Origin: Nitrospinales bacterium
GTDB taxonomy: Bacteria; Nitrospinota; Nitrospinia; Nitrospinales; VA-1
Assembly (NCBI GenBank): GCA_965249625.1
Contig: OZ252246.1
Coordinates: 2,706,236 to 2,770,235, forward strand
Direction: 5' to 3'
Length of the DNA stretch: 64,000 bases
Shown: positions 2,193 through 42,424 of the stretch, piece after piece
Layout: each line of letters begins with the position of its first letter
How positions within the stretch are numbered: the first letter of the stretch is position 1
Made by a program: the position numbers and the translations under genes
Notes under the pieces: model-generated
What the model was told of the DNA's origin: nothing
Database searches by the model: none
Seen by the model: the letters and a program-made list of their open reading frames with translations, nothing else

Positions 2193-3475
2193 TGCTCGAT
2201 TTAAAAATTATTCGCGAAAATCCTGAGGCGGTGAAAATTCGTCTCAAACGTCGGGGCGGTGATTTCAAGGAACTGGATGAATTGCTCAAGCCCGAAGAAG
2301 ACCGGCGGTTGGGACTTCAGGAATCAGAATCGCTGAAAAATAAAAAAAAGAAACTTTCTGCAGAGGTCGGTCAGCTCAAACAAAAAGGCCGGGACGCTTC
2401 AGAACTTATGGAAGAGATCAAAGTCATTAACAGCTCCATAAAAGAGCTGGATGATAAAATCCGAACCCTGGAACACCAGGTGCAGGAGAAACTGCTTGGC
2501 ATCCCCAACACTCCTGATGACTCCATTCCTGATGGTGCCGATGAAAGCGCCAACCGAAAGGTGCGCGATTGGGGAACGAAGCCGAAACTTTCATTCAAAC
2601 CAAAAAATCATGTGGAAATTGGCGAACAGCTCGGCCTGATCGATTTAAAAAGAGCCGCAAAAATTTCCGGAGCCCGGTTCGCGGTCTATAAAGGACAAGG
2701 AGCAGGACTGTTGCGTGCTTTGATCAATTTTATGATCGATGTGCAAACCCGGGAAAACGGTTATGAGGAATTGTATCCACCCTTCTTGGTCAACAAGGAG
2801 AGCATGCAAGGCACCGGGCAATTGCCTAAATTTGAGGAAGAGTTATTCGTCATCCGCGACGACCCCCTTTACCTCATCCCCACTGCCGAAGTTCCTGTTA
2901 CCAATTTTCATCGTGATGAAATTCTGGAAGAGGAGTCGTTGCCCGTCTGTTATGCCGCTTACACCCCTTGTTTCAGGAGAGAAGCCGGGTCCTATGGCAA
3001 AGACACGCAGGGATTGATTCGGCAGCACCAGTTCGACAAAGTAGAGCTGGTCAAATTTAGCCGACCGGAGGAATCACCCGCAGAGCTTGAAGCTTTAGTC
3101 GAGAATGCGGAGGCCATCCTTAAAAAACTTGACTTGCATTACCGGGTGATGGAGCTATGTGCCGGTGACTTGGGTTTCTCTGCAGCTAAAACTTATGATC
3201 TGGAAGTGTGGCTTCCCAGTCAGGATACGTATCGGGAAATCTCATCTTGCAGCAATTTTACCGACTATCAGGCCCGGCGGGCTCGGATCCGCTGTAAAAA
3301 ACGCACGGGCAGTAAACCGGAGTTCGTCCACACCTTGAACGGTTCAGGCTTGGCCGCAGGCAGATTGTTTGTGGCCCTGCTGGAAAATTACCAGCAGGAA
3401 GACGGAACAGTTGTGGTGCCGGAAGTGTTGCGCCCCTACTTGCACGGGCGGGAAGTTTTAGCAGGGTATCCATAA
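2192..3475 (+). CDS. serS: seryl-tRNA synthetase
   Basis: 427 aa. N-terminal coiled-coil arm ([12 protein letters not shown]...) and class II core motifs ([25 protein letters not shown]). Confidence 0.95.
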
Positions 3476-3622
3476 ATCTATAATTTTCATTTTTGCCATT
3501 CGCGTAACCTTTTTTCAAAGGTCGTGTCAATGCTGAGAGCAGGTTTTCTGTTTCGTTATAAAGCATTGACTTAAAGCAGGAAACCGTCCCTTGACATTTT
3601 CCCGCAAGTAGATAAATATAAA
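3390..3622. repeat. 233-bp direct repeat, copy 1 (serS 3' end plus downstream promoter-like region)
   Basis: Co-linear with 6791-7023, with 5 substitutions visible by eye. Covers the last ~28 codons of serS and 147 nt downstream, including TTGACA at 3591-3596. Confidence 0.9.
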
Positions 3623-3641: not shown

Positions 3642-4718
3642 CTAAGTTTTAATCATTTCATAAAGTTCTACATTGTAATACAAGTGATGCCTTCCCAACC
3701 AAAGATCGCCCATGATTCCAGCTTCTTTGAGTTCGTGCAAATGCTTACTGGCGGTTTGAGGGTGAATTTTCAGGGCCGTGGAAAATTGGGTTGGCGTTGT
3801 AAAAAGAAATGAAAAAACATGACTCACAGTTTCAATCGCATTCATCTTAGAATGATTTTTGCGAATAGTTTCTGTCAACCTTTGATACAAACTCATCATT
3901 TGAAAAATTTTTGTTTTTGTTTTAATAGCTTCTGACCTGAATCCTTCCAGCACGAATAAAATATATGTTTCCCAATCCTCAGTTTCTGTTACTAGTTGTA
4001 GGGTTTGGTAATATTGAGGACGATTCCTGTTAAAATAAGCGCTGGTATACAAAACTGGAAAACCCAGTAAACCCTCCTGCACTAACTGAAGGACCAGTAA
4101 TATTCTTCCCGTCCTTCCGTTTCCATCGCCAAAGGGATGAATTGCCTCAAACTGATAATGGGCGATGGCACACCTGATCAGTGGGTCAATTTTCAGATTG
4201 TCCGACCTGTTGACAAAATTTTCCCAATTTTGTATTAACTCGCCTATCCTTGAAGCTATGGGTGGTGTATATGTAATCTCTCCGGTTTTTTTGTTTTGGA
4301 TCCCATTTTGTAGTTTCCTGTAACCAACTTTGGTTTGCATCAGTTTTTCGTGTATTCCCAAAACCAATCTTGTTGATATTGAAAAATCTTTGATATGCCG
4401 CATTGCCCAATTGATCGCCTCTTGATACCTCAAAGTTTCTCTGTCCGGGCCTTTTTGCTCCGACACCGGGATAACCTGGCTCTTCAAAACACTTTCTACA
4501 GTCGTATGGATTTCTTCAATACTTGAGCTTTCTACGGATTCCTTAGTCATGGCCACAGACATTAGAACTTTTGCCTCGGGGATACTAGTACAGTACCCCT
4601 TCAGTTCTCCTATCTCCCGGCTTGCAGAATTAAGCGCCTTTAGTATTGAAGTGGTGTCGAAATCTATCTGGGGTGGCAACAGCTTTAAATTATGTGGTTG
4701 ATTGGGATTAAAATTCAT
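3642..4718 (-). CDS. Fic-domain protein (AMPylase-type fold) with Fic_N-like N-terminus and C-terminal wHTH-like tail
   Basis: 358 aa with the canonical Fic motif HPFGDGNGRTGR. The N-terminal SSSIEEI resembles the [S/T]xxxE[G/N] inhibitory helix, with E in place of G/N. Confidence 0.85.
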   Translation of the reverse strand: MNFNPNQPHNLKLLPPQIDFDTTSILKALNSASREIGELKGYCTSIPEAKVLMSVAMTKESVESSSIEEIHTTVESVLKSQVIPVSEQKGPDRETLRYQEAINWAMRHIKDFSISTRLVLGIHEKLMQTKVGYRKLQNGIQNKKTGEITYTPPIASRIGELIQNWENFVNRSDNLKIDPLIRCAIAHYQFEAIHPFGDGNGRTGRILLVLQLVQEGLLGFPVLYTSAYFNRNRPQYYQTLQLVTETEDWETYILFVLEGFRSEAIKTKTKIFQMMSLYQRLTETIRKNHSKMNAIETVSHVFSFLFTTPTQFSTALKIHPQTASKHLHELKEAGIMGDLWLGRHHLYYNVELYEMIKT

Positions 4719-6790: not shown

Positions 6791-7023
6791 ACCAGCAGGA
6801 AGACGGAACAGTTGTGGTGCCGGAAGTGTTGCGCCCCTATTTGCACGGGCAGGAAGTTTTAGCAGGGCATCCATAGATCTATAATTTTCATTTTTGCCAT
6901 TCGCGTAACCTTTTTTCAAAGGTCGTGTCAATGCTGAGAGCAGGTTTTCTGTTTCGTTATAAAGCATTGACTTAAAGCAGGAAACCGTCCCTTGACATTT
7001 TCCTGCAAGTAGATAAATATAAA
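6791..7023. repeat. 233-bp direct repeat, copy 2 (orphan serS 3' fragment plus tRNA-Ser promoter)
   Basis: Matches 3390-3622. The serS-derived part has no upstream reading frame. The repeat ends 17 nt before tRNA-Ser(UGA). Confidence 0.9.
6992..7020 (+). promoter_or_regulatory. sigma70-like promoter for the tRNA-Ser pair
   Basis: TTGACA (6992-6997), a 16-17 nt spacer, then TAAATA/AAATAT (7014-7020). This places the start about 15-20 nt before the tRNA at 7041. Confidence 0.5.
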
Positions 7024-7126: not shown

Positions 7127-7219
7127 CTCGCTAACTTGGCTGCTGGCCGCAGGGGCAGGTTGCAATGGCCCCTCAGGCGGTCAGCGGGGTTTTGAGGGCA
7201 GGATAAAATATTACTTATT

Positions 7220-7310
<91 letters not shown>

Positions 7311-7582
7311 GAGACCTTTGCATAACCCCGGATTACCCCTTCGGGGCACGAGGGCTTGAGTTGAACATCACGTCTTCGTCACCTTGTTCCTCAGAATGAC
7401 AAATAGCCTTGTATTGTCATTCTGAATGCTTCGGCTTCGCTCAGCACAGGCTCCGTGAAGACGTGATATTTTTCCTTAACCTTCGTGCCCCGAAGGGGTA
7501 TGTGATATCCTCTTCCTTAAACTTCATGCCCCGCAGGGGTAATCTCGCTTTTCTGTTTTTTTTCGACTTACGCAAAGCTCCC
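7311..7582. mobile_element. MITE copy (long variant) inserted at the CCA end of tRNA-Ser(GCU)
   Basis: Starts GAGACCTTTGCATAACCCCGG immediately after the tRNA and ends CGCAAAGCTCCC. Carries the central CAGAATGACAA...TTGTCATTCTG hairpin and nested GCCCCGAAGGGG hairpins. Flanks are TCTCCGCCA and TCTCCGCTT (7/9 match). Confidence 0.7.
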
Positions 7583-7646
7583 TCTCCGCTTCGGGGCATG
7601 AAGGCTGATGAGGGGATCATAACATGGGGCCCAAAAGGTAAGAACT

Positions 7647-8246: not shown

Positions 8247-8360
8247 TCTGTTAGCCGCAGGGGCAGTGGGCAAGGGCTAATTGAGCCGAGAAGAATTATT
8301 GCTCGCCAGAAAGAGCGATTGCTATTTACCTGCGGAGGTACTCCGCTAAAACCCAATTAT

Positions 8361-11881: not shown

Positions 11882-12171
11882 GGGTTCGATAAATATTGCT
11901 TCCAATTTAATTTTTTAGAATTGTTGGGGTCGGGACCAACGTCAGCAGCACTTTATTAGCGGACGTTTTCTCGACTTTTTTTGTTAGAATACCCCTTGGC
12001 AGGGGAGGCTGTGATATTCCCATCATTACCTTTATGCCCCAACGGGGTAAATTGAGTAAGCGTGTGAAACAATGCCGAGACAACTCTTTGCCAGCAAACA
12101 AGAGCTATTACCCCTCCAGGGAACGAAGGCTAAGGAGAGATATCACATGCACATTGGCCCTGCGCCTGGCA

Positions 12172-12261: not shown

Positions 12262-12426
12262 CCATTCGCCATGGAGGCAAATTGATATAGCCTGTTTGGC
12301 TGCGAGGGCAATTGGGCACGAGATAAAGATATTGCATTTTATTAGCGGAGATTCTCCGCCACTGCTCGCCGCAGGGGCAGGTTAAGCCGAAAGAACTTTG
12401 CTAAAGTGGTGCGTCACTTAGAAAAA

Positions 12427-12560
12427 GAGAGATCCTTCTTCGCCAAAGGCTCATCAGGATGACAAAATGGCGTTTCTTGTCATTCTGAACGTGTGATATT
12501 CCCAACACTAGCTTCATGCCCCGGAGGGGTATTAGTGAAGAATCTCGTTTTTAAGGTCTC
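12427..12560. repeat. degenerate MITE copy (both termini eroded)
   Basis: Contains CAGGATGACAAAATGGCGTTTCTTGTCATTCTGAAC, a GCCCCGGAGGGG hairpin and AGTGAAGAATCTCG...AAGGTCTC, but lacks the CTTTGCATAA terminal blocks. Confidence 0.55.
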
Positions 12561-12593: not shown

Positions 12594-12690
12594 TTGTTGG
12601 GCCTCACGCAACGTGGCTTTGTGAAACCCGTCAGATCCGGAAGGAAGCAGCGGTAGCAAAATCCCATATGTGCTGTGAGTTCCCCAACAA
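12594..12690 (+). ncRNA. ffs: signal recognition particle RNA (4.5S type)
   Basis: Terminal helix TTGTTGGG.../...CCCCAACAA encloses the conserved domain IV sequence GTCAGATCCGGAAGGAAGCAGC. It sits directly upstream of dnaX, a common arrangement. Confidence 0.85.
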
Positions 12691-12764
12691 TTCTGCCTTT
12701 GAATAATATCCCCGGGCGACCCGCGGTCAGCGGTTTGCCTGCAAATCGTCGGTCTTCTGAAATA

Positions 12765-15369: not shown

Positions 15370-15578
15370 CCACTCGGCGTGGGGCCAAGTAGCCGTGATA
15401 CCCTCTTCCACAAACTTCATGCCCCGCAGGGGTAAATGGCTTGATTTGGCTGGCAAAGATTTATCTCGGCTTGACTTGCCCGCGCGGCTGGCAGCCACGC
15501 CAAGTGGGGAAATCCACTTGACAATATGATACAAAACAATTAGATTTCGGTGTTTTAGTCCTATTCCAAAAAAACCAT

Positions 15579-15653
15579 TCCGGTGTGGCGCAATGGTAGC
15601 GCAATCGGCTGTTAACCGATGTGTTAGAGGTTCGAATCCTCTCACCGGAGCCA
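15579..15653 (+). tRNA. tRNA-Asn (anticodon GUU), CCA encoded
   Basis: Acceptor TCCGGTG/CACCGGA, anticodon stem-loop CGGCTGTTAACCG, T-arm AGAGGTTCGAATCCTCT. Confidence 0.9.
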
Positions 15654-15673
15654 GTTTTAGTCCTCTTTTTCAG

Positions 15674-15801
15674 GAGAGCTTTGCGTAAGTCGAAAAAAAC
15701 AGAAAGGCGAGATTCTTCACTGCGTTCAGAATGACAATACAAGGCTATTTGTCATTCTGAGGAACAAGGTGACGAAGAATCCGGGGTTATGCAAAGGTCT
15801 C
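15674..15801. mobile_element. MITE, 128-bp basic form with perfect 9-bp TSD
   Basis: TIRs GAGAGCTTTGCGTAA / TTATGCAAAGGTCTC. Central hairpin CAGAATGACAA-N11-TTGTCATTCTG. Identical CTTTTTCAG at 15665-15673 and 15802-15810. Confidence 0.85.
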
Positions 15802-15821
15802 CTTTTTCAGGGGCATAAAGA

Positions 15822-15853
15822 CCCTGTCGAACCCTCGACAGGGTTTTGTTTTT
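15822..15853 (+). terminator. rho-independent terminator
   Basis: CCCTGTCGA-ACCC-TCGACAGGG followed by TTTTGTTTTT. Confidence 0.65.
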
Positions 15854-15979
15854 ATACGTGTGAAACATACAAGGGGCTATTCACCAAGGGCAGCTCGTAT
15901 CTTTGAAATTTTTTTCTGATTGGTTTTATGGTTGTTGTATAGATGCCAAATTAGGTCATGAAGTTCATCGCCCAAGGCT

Positions 15980-16198
15980 TTACGGCCAGTTTTTTTTTGA
16001 ACAATCCACCAAAGCATTGAGACGATTGGTGATGGTTTTTTTTATTCCCAGTGAACTTTGCCCACCGCTATTATAAACTTCGAAATACACGTCGAAATAA
16101 TCCAAACCCGGAAAATCCTCATCAACTATCTTTGATATTTGCTTTCCCTCTTGAGCAAGTCGTTGCATCTTTTCTGAATCAGACTGAGATATTGACAT
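15980..16198 (-). CDS. hypothetical small protein (72 aa)
   Basis: ATG ORF in an AT-richer patch. No recognisable domain. Confidence 0.3.
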   Translation of the reverse strand: MSISQSDSEKMQRLAQEGKQISKIVDEDFPGLDYFDVYFEVYNSGGQSSLGIKKTITNRLNALVDCSKKNWP

Positions 16199-16343
16199 AG
16201 CATTTCCCTAAATTTGAGAGTGACAGGATAAGTTTTATTTGTTAATCCAAACGGCTTATCATCAAAGATGCAATTGTCAAAATAACTAATGTTCTGTGGC
16301 CATCGGCCTTGAAACCATATGACATTTGTATTACAATTGTAAT

Positions 16344-16844
16344 ATGATTGTTTTTGATGCTTCCACATTAATTCTGCTGGCCCGGACGGAAATGCTGGAG
16401 ATGTTTATTTCCAGTTACTCGGAGGATGTGCAAATTCCCGAGGCTGTTAAAAAAGAAGTCCTGGGGAAGGACAGTGAAGAGGCTCCACAATTGGATGCCA
16501 TGATTAAGGCAAAAAAAATCCATGTTTCAAAGGTAGTTAATAGAAAGATTTTAAAGAAACTCATTGAAGATTTTAATATCGATTTGGGCGAGGCAGAGGC
16601 AATAACTCTTGCGATGCAAAAAAAGGGAGCTGTGATTGCCACAGATGACAGGAATGCCATCCGGGCATGTAAGCTTTTAAAGATAGATTTTATTACCGCG
16701 ATTTCCATCTTGGTGAGGGCGGTAGAGAAAAAACTTCTCGATAAAAGAGAGGCTCTTTTAAAATTGGATAAGCTCAAATTGATAGGAAGGTATAAAATGA
16801 CCATAATTACTGATGCAAGAAGCCAGATCAGGGAGGCAGGTTGA
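16344..16844 (+). CDS. PIN-like nuclease (DUF3368/COG2405-type toxin)
   Basis: MIVFDASTLILLARTEML... and ATDDRNAIRACKLL, typical of the DUF3368 PIN family. ATG 16344 is preferred over the track start at 16326. Confidence 0.75.
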   Translation: MIVFDASTLILLARTEMLEMFISSYSEDVQIPEAVKKEVLGKDSEEAPQLDAMIKAKKIHVSKVVNRKILKKLIEDFNIDLGEAEAITLAMQKKGAVIATDDRNAIRACKLLKIDFITAISILVRAVEKKLLDKREALLKLDKLKLIGRYKMTIITDARSQIREAG

Positions 16845-16845
16845 C

Positions 16846-17145
16846 ATGCCTGCAAAAACCCTGAGTATACGCATGAACGAAGACGATTATCGCGCCCTCG
16901 TGTCCCTTGCCAAAGAGGGAAAAGAAGACATTTCCAAGACGGTGCGTGAACTTGTTGAGCTCGGACGCACCATGCTTGCCATAGAGAAGTATAAAAGAGG
17001 CGAGGCATCGGCTGAGAAGTCTGCCAGGATAGCGGGAGTATCCATCTCGAAGTTTCTCGACATACTTAGTGAAAATGGTGTTACCGCGAATCTTGAAGAA
17101 GAAGATTATTTGGGGAGCTTGAAGACGGCGAGAAAGATTTGGTGA
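16846..17145 (+). CDS. UPF0175-family antitoxin-like protein
   Basis: MPAKTLSIRMNEDDY... and the C-terminal ARIAGVSISKFLDILSENGV HTH. GGGAGG SD 9 nt upstream. Starts 1 nt after the PIN gene stop. Confidence 0.7.
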   Translation: MPAKTLSIRMNEDDYRALVSLAKEGKEDISKTVRELVELGRTMLAIEKYKRGEASAEKSARIAGVSISKFLDILSENGVTANLEEEDYLGSLKTARKIW

Positions 17146-17258
17146 AATAAACGCGTTGAAAGTATTCCGTCTTTTAAGGAAAGCTTGAAAAACTAAAAGG
17201 GTTTGGTTATTCTCTTTTGGTGAAACCAACTTTAATATCAGTGGGATAACGTAATTTT

Positions 17259-19117: not shown

Positions 19118-19164
19118 CAAAGCCACCTTTCTCTCGACAGGGAGAAGTTCAATCCCCCCCCCCG

Positions 19165-19294
19165 AGAGAGCTTTGCATAACCCGAGATCCTTCGTCGTTT
19201 TCGGCTCCTCAAGGATGACAAACCGGCGTTTCTTGTCATTCTGAACATAGTGAAGAATCTCGTCTTTACCCTTTTTCGACTTACGCAAAGGTCT
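19165..19294. mobile_element. MITE copy with 9-bp TSD CCCCCCCGA
   Basis: GAGAGCTTTGCATAA...TTACGCAAAGGTCTC with a central GGATGACAA...TTGTCATTC hairpin. Flanks 19156-19164 and 19295-19303 are identical. Confidence 0.8.
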
Positions 19295-19305
19295 CCCCCC
19301 CCGAG

Positions 19306-19635
19306 AGAGACCTTTGCATAACCCCGAGATTACCCTTGCGGGGCACGAGGGCTAAGGAAGAGGACATCACAGGCTCCTCAAGGATGACAAACTGGCGTTT
19401 CTTGTCATTCTGAATACTTCGGCTTCGCTCAGCACAGGCTCCGCTTTGTCATTCTGAACGCAGTGAAGAATCTCGGGGTTATGCAAGGCGAGATGCTTCG
19501 ACAGGCTCCGTGAAGACGTGATATTTTTCCTTAACCTTCGTGCCCCGCAGGGGTATGTGATATCCTCTTCATTAAACTTCATGCCCCGAAGGGGTAATCT
19601 CGCTTTTCTGTTTTTTTCGACTTACGCAAAGCTCT
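19306..19635. mobile_element. MITE copy (330-bp composite variant) with 9-bp TSD CCCCCGAGA
   Basis: GAGACCTTTGCATAA...TTACGCAAAGCTCTC. Carries extra hairpin submodules and an internal partial duplicate of the core. Flanks 19297-19305 and 19636-19644 are identical. Confidence 0.8.
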
Positions 19636-19818
19636 CCCCCCGAGAAGGGGGGTCAGGGGGGCTAAACATTCACTCAGCTTTGGACTTCATCCCCATCCGA
19701 TTGCAACCCCGTTATAAACCGATACCACAATAGTTATAATAAAAATTTTATATAGTTATAAATACTAAACATACCAGATATAGGGTAGTTTGATTAAAAT
19801 CTCCGCCGATGATCCCGG

Positions 19819-19880: not shown

Positions 19881-20912
19881 ATGGTCAAGAATCAGGCAGA
19901 AGAAATTTGCGCCTATCTTTTAGCGAAAATACCGGTGCACCCGAAAAATATCGTCGCCAAAGCCTCGAACGCTTTTTCGTGCAGTCGCACCACCGTCCAC
20001 CGGCACCTGAACCGGCTGCTCCGCGATGGAGCGATCATTAAAACCGGCACCACGAGGCAGGTGCAATACTTTTTAAAGTCGGAAAAAAACAAACAAATTC
20101 TTGTTCCTCTGGAACCGGGAGTTGAGGAGGATAAAGTCTGGAAAGAAAACTTTTTGCAGGACTTTGAAACACTCCCCAAAAACGTGCGGAATATTTGTGA
20201 ATACGGTTTTCTGGAAATGCTCAACAATGCCATCGACCATTCAGAGGGAACAGGAGTAGTGATAAAAACAGAGTGGGCATCTGACTCAATTATGCTAGCT
20301 ATTCGCGATGATGGTGTGGGCATTTTTAGAAAGATCAAGAACGCGCTGAGCTTGGAAGATGAGCGCGAAAGTGCCCTGCATCTCTCAAAGGGAAAGTTCA
20401 CCACCGACCCGGAAAACCATACCGGAGAGGGAATATTTTTTTCTTCCCGGGCCTTCGACACTTTTCACATAACATCAAGAGGAATGGGTTATGCAAGAAA
20501 TAATTGGGATGAAGACTGGTTTGTGGAAACGACGAAGGATGAGAATGTACCCGGAACAGGTTTGATAATGAAAATCGCTCTGGGCTCAAAAAGAAAAATG
20601 CAGGAAGTTTATGCAGAATACTCGAACGAAGGTTCTGATGGAATTCATAGCTTTGACAAGACCCATATTGCTGTGAGTCTGAGCAAATTGGGTGATGAAC
20701 GCTATGTCTCGCGCTCCCAGGCGCGGCGCATCTGTTTGGGGCTGGAAAAATTCAAACATGTGGTTTTAGATTTTAGAGATATATCTACTGTCGGCCAGGG
20801 TTTTGTCGATGAGGTGTTTCGTGTGTTTCGGTCCAAATATCCGAGAATAAAGATTGAATACACCAATACTAATGGCGATGTCCGGTTCATGATTAAACAT
20901 AGCTTGCCCTAA
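19881..20912 (+). CDS. wHTH + GHKL ATPase + C-terminal STAS-like (DUF4325-type) protein
   Basis: N-terminal SRTTVHRHLNRLLRDGAI (wHTH). GHKL N-box EMLNNAIDHS, G1 RDDGVGIF, G2 HTGEGIFF. The C-terminal VVLDFRDISTVGQGFVDEVF is typical of DUF4325/STAS-like domains. Confidence 0.7.
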   Translation: MVKNQAEEICAYLLAKIPVHPKNIVAKASNAFSCSRTTVHRHLNRLLRDGAIIKTGTTRQVQYFLKSEKNKQILVPLEPGVEEDKVWKENFLQDFETLPKNVRNICEYGFLEMLNNAIDHSEGTGVVIKTEWASDSIMLAIRDDGVGIFRKIKNALSLEDERESALHLSKGKFTTDPENHTGEGIFFSSRAFDTFHITSRGMGYARNNWDEDWFVETTKDENVPGTGLIMKIALGSKRKMQEVYAEYSNEGSDGIHSFDKTHIAVSLSKLGDERYVSRSQARRICLGLEKFKHVVLDFRDISTVGQGFVDEVFRVFRSKYPRIKIEYTNTNGDVRFMIKHSLP

Positions 20913-21005
20913 TAGTGGCAGCGGATAGAGCGGTGGTCTTCTTCATTCTCCGATAGATGATTTTGATAATTCACATAAACTTTACTGGCAGGCTGCTTGA
21001 AAGAC

Positions 21006-23576
21006 TCATATAACTATGTAGTTTCTATCTTTCCATAGTTGTTCAATCTTATGCTCATCTTTTAACCGCAATAAGAAATTATGTTTCCATTCATCGTGTT
21101 TTATTAAATGGCTTCCTTTAGGTTCAATGAAAACCTGATAATGAAACGAGGGTTTATTATCTCCAATTAAAAACAATACAAAATCGGGTTCAAATGCACG
21201 TCCATCATCAAAATTAAATAGTTTGAAGTGTCGTTCATTGCGTAGTAAATAAACCTCTGAATATTTTTTATTCAATTGATCTACTATCTTGTCAATATAC
21301 TTGACCAGATGTTTTTCCTCAGAGGTTCCGTAGTTCTCGTTAAATACAAACCAATCCTTGCTGGACAAATCCATATTTAAATCCTGATTGGTTGTTTTGC
21401 TTTGCGCAATACCATATTCCTGATCGCTCTCGCCATCGTTGACAATATTGAGTGTTTTGTCGGTAAAAGTTTGTTTGACCATATAAGGCTTGAATTCCCT
21501 CGTGCCTTTATGCTCAACATTTTCAACCTGTAATTGACGACTCAATTTATCCAGCAAACGGATCACAATATCCAATTTACTCTCCTGGGTTAGATGGTTC
21601 ACCACATCATTAGAACCTTCAACCTCTACTTTGATCCTCCCCAGATAGTCATCAGAGTCAACGAACTCGGACAGGCTGTGCAAATGTGGAAACAGGCGTT
21701 TTAAATTTGAAAACTGATATTCAGGGAATTGGGCCAGTGCTTTTTTGATGACGCAGGAACCAAATGATTTTATAGAATAATCTTTTTGTGTTTTGTTGGC
21801 TTGTCGCTTTCCTTCAAACTCAAACAGGGTTGACGATTGTGAGTAGCCCGATGGCAATGAGATTTTATGTGTCGTTTGAATAAATGAAGCGGTAATACCG
21901 ATCACATCTTCACGCGCATATTTCACCCGCTCATTCTTGAAAACAAAACCCGCCTTATAAAATGGTTTCTCTTTGAAATCTGGTTTTAGTGTTAATTGCA
22001 GCTCACGACTGGTTTTTGCTTTAATACCGATTTCTTCTAAAGCTGTGTGTAACTCTTGAATATATCTGGGATTATAAGCACTGTGATAATATAGCTCCTC
22101 GCACAATTTTAAGTCATGTTCCTTTTGATTATTGAAAATATCATATTTACGCTGATGAAGCGGTTGATCATCTTCTAACCTGAAAGGGCAATATCTCGCG
22201 CCGCGCCCGATTAACTGCGCCTCTGACAAGGTTGTTTTACCCGGTTTGCCAGATTTTGCGTCGCGCGTATCGTACAGGCGTACAATATCAAACAGATTAA
22301 GTACATCCCAGCCTTCGTTCAGCTTATCGACTGCAAAAATAGCACGGTATTCATTATCCTTGTCTTCCAATGTGTTGACCGCAATCTGTTTCCGCACTGA
22401 TTCATCTTTGGAATTGACAGAGATACACTTGTTTTCAGCGAATTCTTCCTGTAATTCTAAAGCCAGATTGTCCAGTGTAATTTGGTTCTCTTCAAAATAG
22501 CGAAACACTCCAGCTAAAACAGCATCCAGATCAGGATTGCTTGCGATTTTTGCCAGATCGTTTCCTTTCAAGCCCTTTATCCGGGCAATAAATTCATCAT
22601 AGAAGGCGTTAGATTCTGCAATTGTTTTTGACTTGAGCAAAATGACAGGTTTTATCAGCCAACCGTGCTTTTCAAATATTTTCCGCCTGAACTGGCTCAA
22701 TAAAATGGCCTGTAATGCTCGTTCAAACGACCGGACTTCGGATTGTAAAACCTTTACCTCTTTAGAATACCCATCCACTCGGAACACCTTTAGCGGATAG
22801 TCAAAAATTATCTTATCCCGGTATTTTTCAATAATCTGTTCATGGGTTAAGTCCATAGTAGCGGTAAATTCCAGCAGGATATTTTGATTGTTGGCCTTGA
22901 ATATTTTTTCAACCGTGGATTCCCAGCTTGTCAAATCAAACATTTCAGATTGATTCAAGTCTCTGGCTCTTTTGGTTTCTGCATTGATGTGATGCGCCTC
23001 ATCCGAAATCAAGACGATTTTCCCGCTTTCAAAGTCATCAAAAGTAATACTGTTTTCTCGCGGCGTATGTAGGCGGGTATGTAAGCCTTGAATGGTTGAA
23101 AACACGATATTTATATCATCAGGGTTGGCCGCTTGGAAATTATCGACCTCCTTGATGCGTATTGACTGATTATTGATTTGTACCGATTCACTAAACAGAT
23201 ATTTTGAAGCAATCGTATTCAGGAAATTATCACGGGTTTTATTGATGATATTGGTACTGTTTACAAAAAACAGGAAATTGCGATAACCCTGATCATATAG
23301 ATAGAGCATCAAACCCGCCATGATCAGCGTTTTACCGCTACCCGTTGCCATGTGAAATAAGGTTTGTGTCGGTACACTCTTCGGGCGAGCGGGATAACTC
23401 TCCATGTAATACTTGAAACGACCAAAGGCTTCAAGCTGGTAGGGCCGCAATTCAAAGTCAGGGTTGAGGTTGCTGGCGATGCAATCGGGAATATTTTGTT
23501 TATAATAATCATAGCCGCCTAAAAATTCTGCGCCTGTGGTTAGTTTTTCGTGGAGCATTTTTTGTTCAGCCATCAA
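21006..23576 (-). CDS. res: Type III restriction enzyme Res subunit (SF2 helicase + C-terminal PD-(D/E)xK nuclease)
   Basis: Motif I MATGSGKT, motif II SDEAHH, later helicase motifs QLIGRGAR. C-terminal EPDFVLFL...VFIEPKG nuclease motif. The first ATG is at 23573 (TTG at 23576). Confidence 0.88.
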   Translation of the reverse strand: MMAEQKMLHEKLTTGAEFLGGYDYYKQNIPDCIASNLNPDFELRPYQLEAFGRFKYYMESYPARPKSVPTQTLFHMATGSGKTLIMAGLMLYLYDQGYRNFLFFVNSTNIINKTRDNFLNTIASKYLFSESVQINNQSIRIKEVDNFQAANPDDINIVFSTIQGLHTRLHTPRENSITFDDFESGKIVLISDEAHHINAETKRARDLNQSEMFDLTSWESTVEKIFKANNQNILLEFTATMDLTHEQIIEKYRDKIIFDYPLKVFRVDGYSKEVKVLQSEVRSFERALQAILLSQFRRKIFEKHGWLIKPVILLKSKTIAESNAFYDEFIARIKGLKGNDLAKIASNPDLDAVLAGVFRYFEENQITLDNLALELQEEFAENKCISVNSKDESVRKQIAVNTLEDKDNEYRAIFAVDKLNEGWDVLNLFDIVRLYDTRDAKSGKPGKTTLSEAQLIGRGARYCPFRLEDDQPLHQRKYDIFNNQKEHDLKLCEELYYHSAYNPRYIQELHTALEEIGIKAKTSRELQLTLKPDFKEKPFYKAGFVFKNERVKYAREDVIGITASFIQTTHKISLPSGYSQSSTLFEFEGKRQANKTQKDYSIKSFGSCVIKKALAQFPEYQFSNLKRLFPHLHSLSEFVDSDDYLGRIKVEVEGSNDVVNHLTQESKLDIVIRLLDKLSRQLQVENVEHKGTREFKPYMVKQTFTDKTLNIVNDGESDQEYGIAQSKTTNQDLNMDLSSKDWFVFNENYGTSEEKHLVKYIDKIVDQLNKKYSEVYLLRNERHFKLFNFDDGRAFEPDFVLFLIGDNKPSFHYQVFIEPKGSHLIKHDEWKHNFLLRLKDEHKIEQLWKDRNYIVI

Positions 23577-24055
23577 TCACCCCCACAAATCTTTTCTAAT
23601 AATGTCCAGCGCGTTTTGCCGCACACTTATATACTGAGATAGAGAAATGCATGAAACCTTATACTCTCTACAGCAACCAACCAGATTCTTCTGCTTATTC
23701 GGATTTTCCTGAGTTACCACAGTTAGCTCTCTTGATTGTGCAAGCGCAATAATCACTGGGTCAGCATTAACTCTGCTTTGTTTTTTCACTAACTTTGGGC
23801 ATCTATTGGCAATATCCGCAATATTGCCTTGTAGCCCAGGTTGCGTAGGAATGAATAAATTGGATTGTTTCTTGACCCACTCGGTCAAGGAGTCATCCAT
23901 TTTTTTTCGAGTTCTTGTTTTACTTCCACTGGAGCCTGGATAAACTGGTTCTCAGTATCTTTTTCGATGAGCTTGAAAACATCTTCAAATGTTGCGGGAG
24001 CATAAATTTCATGCCACCAGGCAATAAACGCGCTGGTATCAAATAGATAGCTCAT
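23577..24055 (-). pseudogene. DUF4411-like PIN-domain protein split by a frameshift in an A8 (T8 on +) run
   Basis: ATG 24055 encodes MSYLFDTSAFIAWWHEIYAP...ELEKK, then terminates after 4 more codons. The tracked ORF 23577-23900 (MDDSLTEWVKK...VNADPVIIALA...) continues in another frame. One extra A at 23900-23907 restores a ~159-aa protein. Confidence 0.6.
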
Positions 24056-25242
24056 GACACCCATCTATGCAGTGGAAATTGCAGCCTTTTGGACAACTTA
24101 CCAAGGTGTTTGAGTTTCATCCCCAATACATCATAAATCTCGGTGGCATTAACACTCCCCTGCTCATAAGCGGCTAATACGGTTTGAGTGAGCAAATTTC
24201 CGCAACGGTCAAGTACCTGCTTATCGGGAGGAGCAGCTCTAACGAAATCGGACCTGTTTTCCAGCCCTTTCAGATAGTGCCGCTTGTATTCATCAAGCAA
24301 CGTATCCAGCGTTGCCTGGCCGATAAGGCCCAGCGCTTTCAATTTCACCGCAATTGCGCTATGGCTTATTTTAAGATTAGAGGCCAGGGCTTGAATAGTT
24401 TCTTCAGGATTGCCGCTATCATTCCATTGAGTTTGAAGATAACCGTCATCAATAAGCACTCCGGAAGCAACGCGATTACACATCGTTTCTACAGGGTCAT
24501 AGTCCGCAGCTTCCTGTCTAAAATTTATTTGGGATACGCCGCTATTATCATCCAGTAACAAATGCGCTAATTCATGCACCAGCGTAAAAATGCGTCGTGC
24601 GGGGCTGTCTGCGGGATTGAGAAGAATTAAGGGGGAGTAGTTATCATAAAGCACCAAACCACTGTATTCATTACGGTCAATTTTGTGTGCCGCGTGGGTT
24701 CCGTTAGCTGAAACAATAACGCGTTTGGCTTCAATCTTTTCTGTCCAATAAGACAGGGCTTGTTTATCGTTTTCCATCTTCGAAATTTTTTGCCTGTCAA
24801 TCTTCAGCCATTGCACGACCCAATCCGCAATATGTTTTACATTTTGTTGACCAGCGAATGAGCCTAACCAATTCAAGGGGTTCGCATTTTCATTTTGCAG
24901 GTATTCCCGCATCCATGATTGGCGTTCACGCGCATCTCGTATGGCAGAGCAAAGCGGGTGGCTGTAAGGCTCTCGGGTTTCGGGGCGGCGAAAATCTTTA
25001 GGTTTCTCCTGTTGCCATTCTTCGGGAATGACTTTCAGGTAAAGAACGGGTAAGGAAACTTTATATTTATCCGCCAGCTTCCTGGCATTGGATAAACCTA
25101 TGCCTTCTTGACCGGATTCCCAGGCGGTTATCTTCTCAACGGATTTATTCAGTTTTTTTGCGGCCTGTTCGATGGACAAGCCGATATCTTCCCGCGCCCA
25201 ACGCAAGGTAGCAGGATGAACAGGGACTGTTTTTATTGCCAT
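24052..25242 (-). CDS. XRE-family HTH fused to ImmA/IrrE-type zinc metallopeptidase (COG2856)
   Basis: N-terminal LSIEQAAKKLNKSVEKITAWESGQ HTH. HEXXH motif in FTLVHELAHLLLDD. ATGA overlap with the downstream DUF4411-like gene. Confidence 0.8.
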   Translation of the reverse strand: MAIKTVPVHPATLRWAREDIGLSIEQAAKKLNKSVEKITAWESGQEGIGLSNARKLADKYKVSLPVLYLKVIPEEWQQEKPKDFRRPETREPYSHPLCSAIRDARERQSWMREYLQNENANPLNWLGSFAGQQNVKHIADWVVQWLKIDRQKISKMENDKQALSYWTEKIEAKRVIVSANGTHAAHKIDRNEYSGLVLYDNYSPLILLNPADSPARRIFTLVHELAHLLLDDNSGVSQINFRQEAADYDPVETMCNRVASGVLIDDGYLQTQWNDSGNPEETIQALASNLKISHSAIAVKLKALGLIGQATLDTLLDEYKRHYLKGLENRSDFVRAAPPDKQVLDRCGNLLTQTVLAAYEQGSVNATEIYDVLGMKLKHLGKLSKRLQFPLHRWVS

Positions 25243-25245
25243 GAC

Positions 25246-27012
25246 CTAACCCCCATAAAACTGCTTATTCAGTTTTTTATCCTCATCCGATATTTGATAA
25301 TCTGCATCGTCAATTTCAGAATAATTGACATAAAGCTGGTTTTTGTCCAGCACGGCAATCAGGAATTGTTTTTGTTCTGCTATTGATAATCCGGCAAACG
25401 CATGGATATTTTTATTGATGGTTTCTGGTTTTATTTTGTGGCTGATAAAGTCGGTATTTTCCATTTCATGCCAGAGGGCAGTCAAGTCTTGGGTGGTCCC
25501 GGCTTGTTCGATTTTATCAATGATGTTGGCATTGTGTTGCGTAAGTTCGCAGTAAGTAAATGAGCCACCGCCTTGCCAGTTTATGCTTTTAGAGATACCT
25601 TTGTTATCCTTCCCTTTCACAACATTATGTAACCTTGGTATTAGCGTTTGAATCCCTCCCTCTAATTGCTCAACACCGATAAATGTTCTGCCTAACTTTA
25701 AACTGGTTACAGCAGTCGTTCCACTACCAAGAAAGAAGTCAAGTACTATATCGCCCGGTTCAGATGCGGCTTCAATGATTATTTTCAACAGACTTTCCGG
25801 CTTGGCTGTATCATAGCTTGCTTCCTTTGAGTTTTTAATTAGAGTATTCCCCCAAACATCTCCTAAAACAACATATTTAGCATCTGGTGCCGTTATGAGT
25901 TTTACAACTTTCTCTCTGTTAAGGTCGATTCTGTCAGAAACATATGTTTTTAGACCTGTTCCAGCTTCTAACTCCCATTCAGCGGGAGTTCTACCCATTC
26001 TACCTCTTGTGTAAAACCACCCCTTCGAATCTTTTTCAATTCTGTTAATAGTGGATGTTTTATATGGTCCTAATGGAGGAACCCAATACCTCGAAACCTT
26101 GTCTTTAGCATAAATAAATATATTCTGATACTCAGTAGGCATTGAAGAACTTTTTGAGTGCGACCTTGAACTCCCGCCCTCTCTCCCTTTATGCCAAATA
26201 ATTTCGTTAACAAAATTTGATCTTCCAAAAATCTCATCCAGCATAACTTTCATGTAGTGAGACTCGTTGTTGTCAACATGTATAAAAATATTTCCATCAA
26301 TACTTAAAATGTTTCTAGCAGTTAGCAGACGACTTCGCATAAAAGTCAACCAGGTAGAATGGTTAAAACTATCATTGTAAGTAAAGCTATCTCGTTCTGT
26401 GTTGAATGGCGGGTCAATATAAATCAGTTTGACCTTACCCGCATACTGCTTTTTCAAACAATGCAAAGCCAGCAGATTGTTGCCCTTGATAATCAAATTA
26501 TCATCAATGCCAATGCTTTCTACTTTATGCTCGCTTTCTTTATCGTATCTCTTGAAACTGGTTAATACCTTCGGGTCAAGCAAGCGGTCAATTTCATCCG
26601 AAGCGAGGGTTTCATTCCAGAATATTTCTTTGCGTTTCTGCTCCTCTTTAGTCTGCCCGCCTTCCAGCACACAATCTTTATACGGCCATGCTAAAACCAC
26701 CTCTCTGCTTTCCGTTAAATATTCCCCGTTCGCCGTTAAACCGATTTTGTTTTTGAATGCGGTGTAGCTGTCGGGTAAAAATTGTTTGTTGCTGACAAAA
26801 CTTTGAAACGCCACCTTATCAAATACCAGTACACCAGCTACATCCTTGAAAAACTGCTTTTTGACTGCCCCACTCCCCAACAACAAGGCAAGCAAACCTT
26901 CATCCATTGCAAGTGCCAGCTCAACAATTTTATTTTTCACCAACTCACCATCAACGACCAGACGCTCATCGCCTTGTAGTGTGGCTTTTAATTCTTCTAA
27001 TAAATTTTGCAT
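25246..27012 (-). CDS. mod: Type III R-M Mod subunit (N6-adenine DNA methyltransferase, beta class)
   Basis: Motif IV LIYIDPPFNT precedes motif I DFFLGSGTTAVTS. The N-terminal region (TAFKNKIGL) is typical of Mod proteins. Confidence 0.88.
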   Translation of the reverse strand: MQNLLEELKATLQGDERLVVDGELVKNKIVELALAMDEGLLALLLGSGAVKKQFFKDVAGVLVFDKVAFQSFVSNKQFLPDSYTAFKNKIGLTANGEYLTESREVVLAWPYKDCVLEGGQTKEEQKRKEIFWNETLASDEIDRLLDPKVLTSFKRYDKESEHKVESIGIDDNLIIKGNNLLALHCLKKQYAGKVKLIYIDPPFNTERDSFTYNDSFNHSTWLTFMRSRLLTARNILSIDGNIFIHVDNNESHYMKVMLDEIFGRSNFVNEIIWHKGREGGSSRSHSKSSSMPTEYQNIFIYAKDKVSRYWVPPLGPYKTSTINRIEKDSKGWFYTRGRMGRTPAEWELEAGTGLKTYVSDRIDLNREKVVKLITAPDAKYVVLGDVWGNTLIKNSKEASYDTAKPESLLKIIIEAASEPGDIVLDFFLGSGTTAVTSLKLGRTFIGVEQLEGGIQTLIPRLHNVVKGKDNKGISKSINWQGGGSFTYCELTQHNANIIDKIEQAGTTQDLTALWHEMENTDFISHKIKPETINKNIHAFAGLSIAEQKQFLIAVLDKNQLYVNYSEIDDADYQISDEDKKLNKQFYGG

Positions 27013-27417
27013 ATCTGTTTGTAGTTCTCTTTATGAATTTTATCCGCTGGATTGATACTTTCAAACGCATAGCACTTGAATTCAGAGAGTGATGCAACCG
27101 TCCGCTGGAGTAATTTATCAGGTTATTTTTTATTATATGCGATAATCTTCGGCCTAAGCGGTTATGGAATAGTTGGCTAACATTTTAGACCAAGGTAATT
27201 TTTTTCACAATAAAAGCCTCTACTTTTTCCTATCTACACGTAAAACTAAGAGAATAGAGCAAGTTTTTGTATTCCTTCTATTTTTACGGTTGGTTAAATA
27301 TCGCGTTTCACCCGTATTTCTTTTAACTTAAAATATCGCCGACTGTTCAAGATGCTTGCGGTTTAACACCCCATTGGTGTAAGCTGAGGGACTCTATAAC
27401 AAAAACGGTAATGAGTC

Positions 27418-28728
27418 ATGATTCCCGAATTATTGTCACCTGCTGGCAGCCCTGAGAAATTAAAATATGCTTTGGCGTATGGTGCGGATGCGGTCTATGC
27501 GGGCATTCCCAAGTTTTCCTTGCGGGCCAGAGAGAATCCTTTCAAAAACGATTTGCTTGAAGAAGCCATTGCCTACACCCACGATAAGGGCAAGAAGATT
27601 TATGTTACGGCCAATATTCTTCCGCCCAACCGGAAAATTGAATCCTTTAAAAAATCCCTGGCTCAACACGCTGCATTGGGGCCTGATGCATTCATCATGG
27701 CTGATCCGGGGATGATTCAGTTTGCTCTAAAGGAGTTTCCCCAGATTCCGGTTCATCTTTCGGTGCAAACCAATACTATGAATTGGTCCTCGGTGGAATT
27801 TTGGTACAACCTTGGAGTTAAGCGGGTCATTTTATCGAGAGAGCTTTCCCTGGAAGAGATTCAGGAGATCCATGACCGGGTTCCAGATATGGAACTGGAG
27901 GCTTTCGTGCACGGGTCAATTTGTATTGCTTATTCTGGCCGGTGCCTGTTATCCAATTATTTCAATCACCGCGATGCCAATCAGGGCACGTGCACCAACA
28001 GTTGCCGATGGGAATTTAATGTTAAGGAGGAAGTAGAAAAAGAAACCGAACAATATCAGCCGCTTAAGGGGCAGTATGCCATTGAGGAAACTTCGCGAAA
28101 AGGCGAAATGATGCCTGTCGATGAAGACGAGCACGGTACTTATATCATGAACTCGAAGGACTTGAGGGCGGTGGAATTTTTAAAACCGCTTCATGAAGCC
28201 GGTGTCATGTCATTTAAAATAGAGGGCCGATCGAAATCCATTTATTATTTGTCCATGGTCACCCGGGCTTACCGTAAGGCCATTAAAGATCTGGCAGAAG
28301 GACGTTCATTCGATCCCGAATTACTTGGAGAAATTGATAAGACGGCGAACCGGGGTTTCACATCCGCGTTTTTAATATCCGCCTCCAATCGGGACACCGA
28401 GCGGTTTGATTCACCGCAGGAGAAAGATCAGGCTCAGATTTTTGGTGGGCAGGTTGTGAATGAGCGGCCGGGTTGGATGGAGGTAGAAGTTAAAAACCGA
28501 ATCGAGCTGGGGGATGAGGTGGAATATATTTCCCCCAGCGGGCAATTCAAATTTTCCATTGATGCTATGGAAACAAGTACCGGGGAAAAAGCAACTGTCG
28601 CACACGGAGGCAATGGAACGATCTGGATTGGAATTGATCGGCAGGCAGAACCGTTCGCACTATTAAGCCTGTTGCAGAGAGAGCTTTGCATAACCCCGGA
28701 TTCTTCGTCACCTTGTTCCTCAGAATGA
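27418..28728 (+). CDS. U32-family peptidase-like protein, with the C-terminal 17 aa encoded by an inserted MITE
   Basis: MIPELLSPAGSPEKLKYALAYGADAVYAG, a U32 signature region and a Cys cluster. From codon AGA at 28678 the frame runs into the MITE (RELCITPDSSSPCSSE*). Confidence 0.85.
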   Translation: MIPELLSPAGSPEKLKYALAYGADAVYAGIPKFSLRARENPFKNDLLEEAIAYTHDKGKKIYVTANILPPNRKIESFKKSLAQHAALGPDAFIMADPGMIQFALKEFPQIPVHLSVQTNTMNWSSVEFWYNLGVKRVILSRELSLEEIQEIHDRVPDMELEAFVHGSICIAYSGRCLLSNYFNHRDANQGTCTNSCRWEFNVKEEVEKETEQYQPLKGQYAIEETSRKGEMMPVDEDEHGTYIMNSKDLRAVEFLKPLHEAGVMSFKIEGRSKSIYYLSMVTRAYRKAIKDLAEGRSFDPELLGEIDKTANRGFTSAFLISASNRDTERFDSPQEKDQAQIFGGQVVNERPGWMEVEVKNRIELGDEVEYISPSGQFKFSIDAMETSTGEKATVAHGGNGTIWIGIDRQAEPFALLSLLQRELCITPDSSSPCSSE

Positions 28729-28869
28729 CAAATAGCCTTGCATTGTCATTCTGAATGCTTCGGCTTCGCTCAGCACAGGCTCCGTGAAGACGTGATATTT
28801 TTCCTTAACCTTCGTGCCCCGAAGGGGTAATCTCGCTTTTCTGTTTTTTTCGACTTACGCAAAGGTCTC
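28679..28869. mobile_element. MITE copy (191 bp) inside the 3' end of the U32 gene, TSD TGTTGCAGA
   Basis: GAGAGCTTTGCATAA...TTACGCAAAGGTCTC. Identical TGTTGCAGA at 28670-28678 and 28870-28878. Confidence 0.85.
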
Positions 28870-28923
28870 TGTTGCAGAAGGCCAAAATGGCTGAAACCGT
28901 TTAAAGTCAACTGGGAATTTTAT

Positions 28924-30344: not shown

Positions 30345-30889
30345 CTACGAGGCGTAGGGCCGACTAGCAAGGGCTCGTTGAGCCGTCTACGTCTCCCGCT
30401 CGGCACTCGCTCCCGTGAGAAGGAACTGGGCAAAGGCTCATTCAGCCGAGACAAGTTTTTGTTTGCCGAGGAAAGTTATTGCGCACTGGCTCCACGCCTG
30501 ATGGGAGTAGCCGAACCCAATCAAAAATAATCGAAGATTGCCCGCAAGTGTGGCTTCGTCCTGGGTTCCGTCCATGTACCAGCCTGATTCCCAAGCCAGG
30601 ACTTTCTAATAAAGATAAAACTCTGTTTGCAAATTCCCCTGCTTTATGAGGGCAACATTTTATGACGGGAATAGGCCGGAATTCTATCACCCATTTGTAT
30701 TTCCGCAAAAAAACATCTTTCCTATACAAGTATTCCAGTAAGAACCTCTTATTAAACAGACCTCCCCCACCTTTAAATTACAATCTTGAAAAGAACTGTG
30801 ATTTGTCCGAGAATGTCAGATTAACGTTTGTTCGCGTTAAACTTTCCTGTTCCTTGAATAATGCCAAAACTAATCGGGTTTTAAAAAAA

Positions 30890-40003: not shown

Positions 40004-40046
40004 CCTGGGGATTCTTCACTGCGTTCAGAATGACAAGAAACGCCAG

Positions 40047-42373: not shown

Positions 42374-42424
42374 GCAATCGATCCAATCAAAATTAAGTTG
42401 TGTCCCATTGAGACCTTTACAGAA

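Follow-up and report, generated by a model that had tools for sequence, protein, structure and literature searches.

An apparently undescribed family of miniature inverted-repeat transposable elements with 9-bp target-site duplications in Nitrospinales

We analyzed a 64-kb segment of a Nitrospina-type bacterial chromosome (hereafter the window) and found in it a family of short palindromic repeats. [quoted passage not shown] The elements are small and lack coding capacity, end in sharp terminal inverted repeats (TIRs), are flanked by copy-specific target-site duplications (TSDs) of fixed length, occupy sites that are empty in relatives, and are dispersed in many copies. The family is apparently undescribed, and it is a real MITE family of a well-known kind of mobile DNA.

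Seven copies in the window are bounded by 15-bp TIRs (GAGASCTTTGCRTAA). They range from 128 to 330 bp and sum to about 1.55 kb, or 2.4% of the window. Five of them have perfect, copy-specific 9-bp TSDs, one has a TSD that matches at 7 of 9 positions, and one has none; a further copy with eroded ends and several fragments were also present (Table 1). For a wider census, the window was combined with 34 genome loci, which had been retrieved from 185,579 species-representative genomes by an exact 21-mer of one element end (the A-end). Copies in these loci reach 405 bp. In an alignment of 11 copies of minimal length (127-132 bp), taken from the window and from six Nitrospina loci, conservation began at GAGA and ended at TCTC, and the flanks were unrelated. 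Inverted-repeat pairs were counted if they lay 60-900 bp apart, which gave 33 pairs in the census. Repeats of 9 bp with at most one mismatch flanked 22 of them, while a 9-mer pair this similar is expected by chance at about 1e-4 per pair. All 22 duplications differed in sequence, so the 9-mers are copy-specific and not part of the element consensus, as a preliminary description of the window had argued.

Orthologous loci on six metagenome contigs (L035, L036, L037, L038, L039 and L116) were compared with the window, and two of them held empty sites. In L035, the sequence between tRNA-Asn and its terminator reads AGTCC-CCTTTTCAG-GGGCAT, with one 9-mer and no element, and the window has a 128-bp element there between two copies of CTTTTTCAG. 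At the 3′ end of trhP, L116 has a single TATTACAGA, reading GCCTATTACAGAAAGCCGAAACGGCTGAAGCTGTTTAG, where the window has a 191-bp element between two copies of TGTTGCAGA; the BLAST segments left and right of this element overlap by 13 nt in L116. These two orthologous empty sites prove insertion, and they are the basis on which we call the element mobile. In addition, the eroded copy at 12427-12560 is missing in L035 and L036, and neither L037 nor L038 has the two copies near 19.2 kb. An exact empty site for this pair could not be aligned in L037, L038 or L116, which are too diverged there.

The family is almost confined to one bacterial group. Of the 34 stretches carrying the exact A-end 21-mer, 33 were in Nitrospina, Nitrospinales or Nitrospinae assemblies of at least nine species, and the Nitrospina assembly LS_NOB alone had 18 exact matches. 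The sole outlier was in Neolewinella, where the flanking sequence contained no other part of the element. Outside the element, similarity between the 34 genome loci and the window was not detectable. The window itself belongs to the same group: the nearest named homologues of its TrhP protein were from Nitrospina, Nitrospinaceae and Nitrospinales, and its closest relatives were metagenome contigs, with protein identities of 91% (RecR) and 94% (TrhP).

The preliminary description had introduced a 128-bp type copy with TIRs, a central hairpin and identical 9-bp flanks, all of which were confirmed. The four other copies to which it gave perfect TSDs are also genuine; 28679-28869 and 47189-47430 had been placed exactly, and the coordinates of the two near 19.2 kb were one base too low. 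Its list of eroded or truncated copies needed more correction. The copy at 12427-12560 does keep only its tips, and 40005-40046 is indeed a fragment, but one spanning 39990-40046. The copy at 7311-7582, on the other hand, is complete, and the one given as 42425-42538 runs from 42410 to 42538 and retains both TIRs without a TSD. Open reading frames (ORFs) of the "MYCHSERSEE" type had been attributed to the family altogether, and in a six-frame translation of the window the CHSERSEES-type peptides all mapped into copies or fragments.

Table 1. Copies, fragments and solo R modules of the family in the window.
Feature	Position	Strand	Details
Type copy, 128 bp	15674-15801	+	A-end GAGAGCTTTGCGTAAGTCGAAAAA... 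at left; TSD CTTTTTCAG at 15665-15673 / 15802-15810
Complete 272-bp copy with three 40-nt R modules	7311-7582	-	TSD TCTCCGCCA / TCTCCGCTT (7/9)
Copy with eroded ends	12427-12560	-	Core hairpin, one R module, only GAGAG / GGTCTC tips left; no TSD
130-bp copy, subfamily 2	19166-19295	-	TSD CCCCCCCGA at 19157-19165 / 19296-19304
330-bp composite copy	19307-19636	-	Internal B-end TIR remnant and three R modules; TSD CCCCCGAGA at 19298-19306 / 19637-19645
191-bp copy in last 8 codons of trhP	28679-28869	-	TSD TGTTGCAGA at 28670-28678 / 28870-28878
Older, diverged 129-bp copy	42410-42538	+	Both TIRs recognisable; no TSD
242-bp copy with two tandem R modules and duplicated arm	47189-47430	+	TSD CGTGGGAGG at 47180-47188 / 47431-47439
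Fragment: junction module (CTCGCCTTGCACTAACCTGGG) and one arm (GATTCTTCACTGCGTTCAGAATGACAA)	39990-40046	+	
Arm-like variant fragment GATTGCTTCGTC...CTCGCAACGACA	41279-41312	+	Followed by target-type hairpin CCCCC...TTGTCAGGGGG
Solo 40-nt R module TACCCCTCCAGGGAACGAAGGCTAAGGAGAGATATCACA	12109-12148	+	Precise insertion relative to L035; no TSD
Solo R module	12011-12049	-	
Solo R module just downstream of recR	15395-15434	-	Missing in L035 and L037
Two solo R modules in tandem	40281-40359	+	
Palindromic R-tail pair around small hairpin (GTGATAT...CCCGTTCCGGG...ACATCAC)	47444-47512	.	Adjoins the 47189 copy
Partial solo R module	7586-7625	+	Immediately follows the 7311 copy

In its minimal form, the element is one long palindrome with imperfect pairing and the 15-bp TIRs at its tips. 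Its subterminal ends differ slightly, as the A-end continues with GTCGAAAAAAACAG and the opposite B-end with CCCCGGAT, and its core hairpin has the form GATTCTTC...TCAGAATGACAA-loop-TTGTCATTCTGA...GAAGAATC. In the type copy, the termini GAGAGCTTTGCGTAA and TTATGCAAAGGTCTC are complementary at 13 of 15 positions, and the central hairpin is CAGAATGACAA-N11-TTGTCATTCTG. Folded as single-stranded DNA, this copy reached -25.7 kcal/mol (z = -6.2), and the other copies gave z values from -1.4 to -4.4. Two subfamilies were distinguished by loop and arm sequence, one with the loop TACAAGGCTAT and one with GAAACGCCGG. Each is represented in the window as well as in Nitrospina sp. LS_NOB, and copies are up to 97.7% identical between genomes; tblastx found no orthologous genes shared by the window and the LS_NOB loci with which this value could be calibrated.

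Long copies differ from minimal ones mainly by 40-nt GC-rich hairpin modules, which we call R modules and which follow the pattern TACCCC-TNCG-GGGGCAYGAAG...AAGGAAGAGGATATCAC. A search of the window and the Nitrospina loci with an nhmmer profile recovered 73 of them. Inside elements they stand singly or as tandem R2-R1 pairs, the rest of the sequence being 97-99% identical between copies, and their junctions, mirrored between the two arms, always read GAGAT/R/(G)TCTTC. Among the best 54 modules, 36 have a C(UNCG)G loop (TTCG 20, TGCG 12, TACG 2, TCCG 2), which reads C(GNA)G on the opposite strand, and 26 are preceded by GAT. UNCG is a very stable RNA tetraloop, and C(GNA)G is a DNA triloop. 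Variant stems (CCCG...CGGG) retain pairing.

R modules are also found alone. Compared with L035, the one at 12109-12148 is a precise insertion of 39 nt (GAGCTAT/.../TGCNCA) without any duplication, and the presence of other solo modules varies among close relatives. These two observations suggest that the modules form a second class of repeats, one that is unstable or mobile independently. The preliminary description had noted that GC hairpins occur both within copies and alone, which is correct. It had regarded them as nested submodules from which the size variants arise, and this was refined in that the modules behave as a separate 40-nt repeat class and some long copies are fusions of two copies. 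The copy at 19307-19636 is such a fusion, since it contains an internal remnant of a B-end TIR.

The core also has a life outside the bounded element. A core-arm motif (GTCATTCYGA...CGARGAATC) without TIRs was found in L046, a further Nitrospina-like contig, and in three unrelated soil-metagenome contigs. In the latter, the arm motif GTGTCATTCCGAAGCGAAGCGAGGAATC stands just after recR (L058 at 3607, L060 at 578 on the minus strand, L061 at 996), with a chance expectation of about 0.005, and the RecR proteins of these contigs are about 52% identical. Because the motif occurs there without TIRs, the core may be older and more widespread than the TIR-bounded element, which hints that the core hairpin is part of a much wider repeat superfamily.

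The TSDs are not random in sequence and fit a symmetric, hairpin-like target. When the empty sites were reconstructed, they gave the symmetric consensus CCC/CYTNNNARG/GGG, and 9-mers resembling CTTATCAGG recurred five times among the TSDs. Of the 22 reconstructed sites, 13 had a perfect stem, 4 bp or longer, whose centre lay no more than 3 nt from the TSD midpoint, compared with 20% of random positions in the same sequences (resampling p = 6e-5). The longest target stems were 9 bp (L014) and 7 bp (L021). The hairpin that follows tRNA-Asn is retained with differing sequences in L035, L037, L038 and L039, and the window copy occupies its loop. Likewise, the copies at 19166-19295 and 19307-19636 share one C10-GAGAA-G6 hairpin downstream of lgt and are consistent with one insertion after another into that single hairpin, at positions 2 bp apart. 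The copy at 47189-47430 lies 45 nt downstream of metH within a CTCCC-GT-GGGAG hairpin. C-rich/G-rich hairpins (CCCTCCC-N6-GGGAGGG; CTCCC-N4-8-GGGAG) are about 10 times over-represented in the Nitrospina loci (13 found, 1.35 expected) and may be the natural pool of insertion targets. In the window, the unoccupied target motifs CCYTNTCAGGGG and CCCYTNNNNARGGG had one match each, which is not above chance. Another hairpin, ACCCCTTGGCAGGGGAGGC, recurs at 11992-12005 of the window and in L003 (1112), L017 (1456) and L046 (427).

To judge by its sequence, the TIR is of the IS5-family type (GAGAC..TTGCA). Its B-end, GAGACCTTTGCATAA, matches the TIR of the insertion sequence (IS) ISNme1, GAGACCTTTGCAAAA, at 14 of 15 positions, and its tip is identical at 12 of 12 positions to the end of the BrickBuilt element, GAGACCTTTGCA; both published ends were taken from Table 2 of PMC4596501. 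The ends appear to be the mobilised part of the element: copies in CG22 Nitrospinae have the same ends around a different core, and a copy in L030 with two A-ends has a perfect duplication. Tests of 47 window ORFs of at least 120 aa against Pfam or NCBIfam revealed no transposase, so that the term non-autonomous, which the preliminary description had used on the same grounds, is reasonable. Nor was a cognate autonomous IS with matching TIRs present in the window, the 34 genome loci or the metagenome loci. Odd interiors at the contig ends of L011 and L014 were considered as full-length IS candidates and proved to be other short copies.

In the mechanism that we propose, a DDE transposase supplied in trans would bind the TIRs and insert the element, presumably by cut-and-paste, through 9-bp-staggered cuts, and gap repair would then yield the 9-bp TSD. 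The enzyme would most likely belong to the IS5 family, with a TIR tip of the ISNme1/ISPg type and the TSD length of the IS903 subgroup; an IS5-family parent is the best inference that the ends allow. Integration would favour CCC/CYTNNNARG/GGG, usually as the loop in small C-rich/G-rich hairpins that lie downstream of genes and tRNAs. Size variants would come about secondarily in two ways: both arms could take up, shed or multiply 40-nt hairpin modules at their symmetric GAT^TCTTC site, and adjacent copies could fuse.

Several observations weigh against this picture. Eleven of the 33 TIR pairs lack a clean 9-bp TSD: eight have no repeat, and three have a 6-bp repeat inside CCC...GGG flanks (L001 7336-7503, L007 6905-7033 and L033 3622-3750), for example CCTCCC-TTCATA, then the element, then TTCATA-GGGAGG. 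Both TSDs near 19.2 kb are of low complexity and overlap each other by 7 bases. Only short copies are known, as the 34 genome loci contained no TIR pair more than 900 bp apart, and the IS102/IS903 transposase, used as a tblastn query, gave only noise in about 400 kb of window and Nitrospina loci. Within the IS5 family, a 9-bp duplication is typical of the IS903 subgroup, and the IS5 group duplicates 4 bp. In IS102 from pSC101, an IS903-group element, the ends (GGCTTTGTTGAATAAATCGAA) have only a loose similarity to the A-end (GCTTTG..TAA.TCGAA). Those published elements that share the TIR tip duplicate about 4 bp (BrickBuilt). For these reasons, the assignment to a transposase family is tentative. 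As a separate observation, L014 has an unoccupied CCCTCCCTTCATAGGGAGGG hairpin.

Four other explanations were weighed. The R modules raise the possibility of two mobile layers, in which the TIR element would be only a vehicle and the modules (TACCCC-UNCG-GGGGCAYGAAG...GATATCAC) would be a separate mobile unit like the repetitive extragenic palindromes (REPs). This unit would insert on the 3′ side of AT/GAT without making a TSD, perhaps with the help of a Y1 enzyme of the REP-associated tyrosine transposase (RAYT) or IS200/IS605 type, and would repeatedly have invaded the symmetric GAT^TCTTC sites in the two arms; size variants would then not come from internal duplication and deletion only. 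The precise solo insertion at 12109-12148, the variable presence of other solo modules, the frequent GAT, the constant mirrored junctions and the C(UNCG)G loops with compensated stems all speak for it. Yet no Y1 transposase was found among the tested window ORFs, the module lacks the GTAG/CGTC tag beside the stem that is typical of REPs, and only a single precise solo insertion could be aligned; the tandem R2-R1 pairs and the changes of module number in copies that are 97-99% identical fit slippage or minisatellite recombination equally well. We therefore regard two mobile layers as possible but doubtful. A further step is a nested system of three layers: a core hairpin, an independently moving 40-nt C(UNCG)G / C(GNA)G module that invaded both arms at mirror-image GAT^TCTTC sites, and ends of the IS5 type that mobilise any sequence they enclose and choose their target by hairpin-loop structure, not by sequence. 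We consider this unlikely; if it were true, REP-like modules would be spread with the MITE as their vehicle, and its transposase would be a DDE enzyme that selects targets by hairpin structure.

That the whole element is an extragenic palindrome of the REP or bacterial interspersed mosaic element (BIME) type, spread by RAYT or recombination and not a DDE-type MITE, is very improbable. The copies are intergenic, hairpin-forming, mosaic-modular and situated downstream of genes, and core hairpins without TIRs exist in L046 and the three soil contigs. REPs and their doublets (REPINs), however, duplicate nothing, whereas copy-specific 9-bp TSDs and two empty sites reveal staggered-cut integration here, and the conserved ends are 15-bp TIRs of the IS type. 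We give hardly any credence to the reading that the element is an RNA conserved for its function, be it the gene of a structured RNA or a cis-acting regulator (a small RNA, a terminator or a signal for processing), and that it only looks repeated. Stable folds (z between -3.6 and -6.2), UNCG-type loops and the position of the type copy between tRNA-Asn and its terminator, in one transcription unit, would agree with such a role. Rfam 15, however, gave no match at the gathering threshold across the window and none even at E <=1 across 47100-47600; copies lie in both orientations and in unrelated contexts, one of them within a coding region; the orthologous loci function without the element; and the fold of one copy is not better than that of shuffled sequence (z = -1.4). 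The anatomy also led us to reject CRISPR, integron attC sites, group II introns and Rickettsia palindromic elements.

By anatomy, the nearest described relatives of the Nitrospinales MITE family are the IS5-related MITEs BrickBuilt and MITEPgRS/MITE464 of Porphyromonas gingivalis (Klein et al. 2015, PMC4596501). They share the 12-nt TIR tip (GAGACCTTTGCA / TGCAAAGGTCTC in BrickBuilt), are likewise non-autonomous without a transposase remnant, and have interiors with short tandem repeats, whose units of 23 nt and of 41 nt can be compared with the R modules (40-41 nt); the mobility of BrickBuilt was also shown by filled and empty sites. They differ in the duplication (about 4 bp compared with 9 bp), in host phylum and in having known parents, ISPg1, ISPg4 and ISPg9, where none is known for the Nitrospina family. 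No internal sequence similarity to BrickBuilt was seen, and the part of PMC4596501 available to us does not mention a preference for hairpin loops. ISNme1, an autonomous IS5-family element of the proteobacterium Neisseria meningitidis and the proposed parent of the Neisseria ATR MITE, was compared by its TIR alone.

The duplication length and target symmetry recall another branch of the IS5 family. IS903 and IS102 make 9-bp target duplications and have a symmetric target preference centred on the duplication, which Hu and Derbyshire reportedly described for IS903 in 1998. IS102 (L115 6916-7972) is 1057 bp long and encodes a transposase, and its TIR, GGCTTTGTTGAATAAATC, aligns with that of the family only with gaps. 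IS1397 and ISKpn1 insert into the loops of small palindromic sequences (REP hairpins). These are autonomous IS3-family elements with 3-4-bp duplications, whereas the targets in Nitrospina are diverse C-rich/G-rich hairpins and not one REP family.

Likeness to other small repeats is limited. REPs and REPINs are imperfect palindromes of 20-40 nt with a GTAG or CGTC end tag, no duplication and an associated RAYT gene. Only the R modules resemble them, being short GC-rich hairpins that occur solo, in tandem or in inverted pairs outside genes and insert without a TSD; they differ in lacking the tag, in having a stem of 4-5 bp with a 25-nt tail, and in that no RAYT gene was seen. The full element is set apart from REPs by its TIRs and 9-bp TSDs. 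Correia elements (NEMIS) of Neisseria and BOX elements of pneumococci are likewise small and abundant intergenic repeats; they form hairpins and are transcribed together with neighbouring genes. Correia elements are about 100-155 bp long with 26-bp TIRs and a TA duplication; the TSD and the TIRs of our family are different. BOX is modular (A-Bn-C), with a variable number of internal units of about 45 nt, and has no TIRs or duplications. Neither shows sequence similarity to the Nitrospina family.

In the literature that was searched, neither MITEs nor similar repeats were described for Nitrospina, string searches returned only the P. gingivalis paper, and the Nitrospina group goes unmentioned in a 2024 review of MITEs in prokaryotes. 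A specialist would not be surprised by such a family. Its hairpin-centred target preference and modular interior offer case material for IS5-like target choice and MITE growth; they extend known themes without opening a new one.

The copies mostly lie just 3′ of genes or tRNAs and may have affected some of them. The type copy lies between tRNA-Asn (15579-15653) and its intrinsic terminator (15818-15847), downstream of a predicted promoter-like site (15518-15546). Because of this position within the transcription unit, it should be transcribed as part of the tRNA-Asn trailer, which would be lengthened. The left TSD copy of the element at 7311-7582 is the 3′ CCA end of tRNA-Ser(GCT), so that this tRNA remains intact. 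The diverged copy at 42410-42538 is flanked by divergent parB-like and FGE-sulfatase-family genes.

In trhP (27418-28728), which encodes a tRNA U34 hydroxylase, the copy lies within the coding region. TrhP orthologues have 428 aa, exactly the length of the window protein after removal of the element, and end in LLSLLQKAETAEAV (...LLQKAETAEAV). The window ORF ends in LLSLLQ-RELCITPDSSSPCSSE and a stop, with 16 element-encoded residues in place of KAKMAETV, and the frame displaced beyond the element still reads KAKMAETV and a stop. The displaced frame and the length of the orthologues indicate that the 191-bp copy replaced the last eight codons of trhP, and the protein made would probably have an altered C-terminus.

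Nitrospina and its relatives are the main oceanic nitrite oxidisers and have small genomes. As the family is common to assemblies of at least nine Nitrospinales species, its recognition would be useful for annotation and assembly: metagenome assemblies are broken by it (copies stand at contig ends in L005, L011 and L014), and its copies produce spurious "MYCHSERSEE"-type ORFs as an annotation artefact. Polymorphic copies could serve as markers for strain tracking.

Besides the repeats, the window contains five tRNA genes with encoded CCA ends, a signal recognition particle RNA gene (12595-12692) and protein genes including dnaX, recR, lgt, trhP, metH, a clpB-like gene, bamA and lipid A genes. 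Several other features were noticed. A direct repeat of 233 bp, 98% identical, occurs at 3390-3622, where it covers the 3′ end of serS, and at 6791-7023, just upstream of tRNA-Ser(TGA) at 7041. The pair encloses about 3.2 kb with a Fic/DOC gene (3642-4718), a DUF2846 gene and ORFs of unknown function. The segment looks like an inserted island with a duplicated attachment sequence; no integrase was seen. About 1.4 kb between the tRNA-Asn terminator and hemB (15850-17250) is missing in L035 to L039, where the spacer is 115-135 bp, and its ORFs at 16326-16844 (+), 16415-17008 (-) and 16828-17229 (-) had no Pfam or NCBIfam match. The region 20900-27320 is a variable island when compared with L116 (1378-5898). 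In the window it holds a type III restriction-modification pair (res 21006-23576, mod 25246-27012) and a helix-turn-helix/M78 peptidase gene, and in L116 genes for an SNase, a sigma-54 response regulator and a cyclic nucleotide (cNMP)-binding protein.

Repeats of other kinds were also present. Seven tandem 102-nt units at 31709-32422, with 62-86% identity to the first, lie inside an ORF (30662-32467; TrmB-like methyltransferase with a weak TPR match) and encode a 34-aa repeat array. The short repeat CTGCTSGCCGCAGGGGCAG adjoins tRNA genes at 7140-7169, 8248-8277 and 12362-12391 and in L035 at 322-341 and 422-441, where it directly follows tRNA-Ser(GGA) and is duplicated. The region 39660-40180, read by eye, resembles gene debris with an aminotransferase-like (DegT-like) fragment. 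The MITE fragment within it fuses the aminotransferase-like piece to a short ORF ending in KFMVRILPEQHRNLVMQATEQGISLNRYISSKLH and a stop, which by eye resembles the C-terminus of a HicB-type antitoxin.

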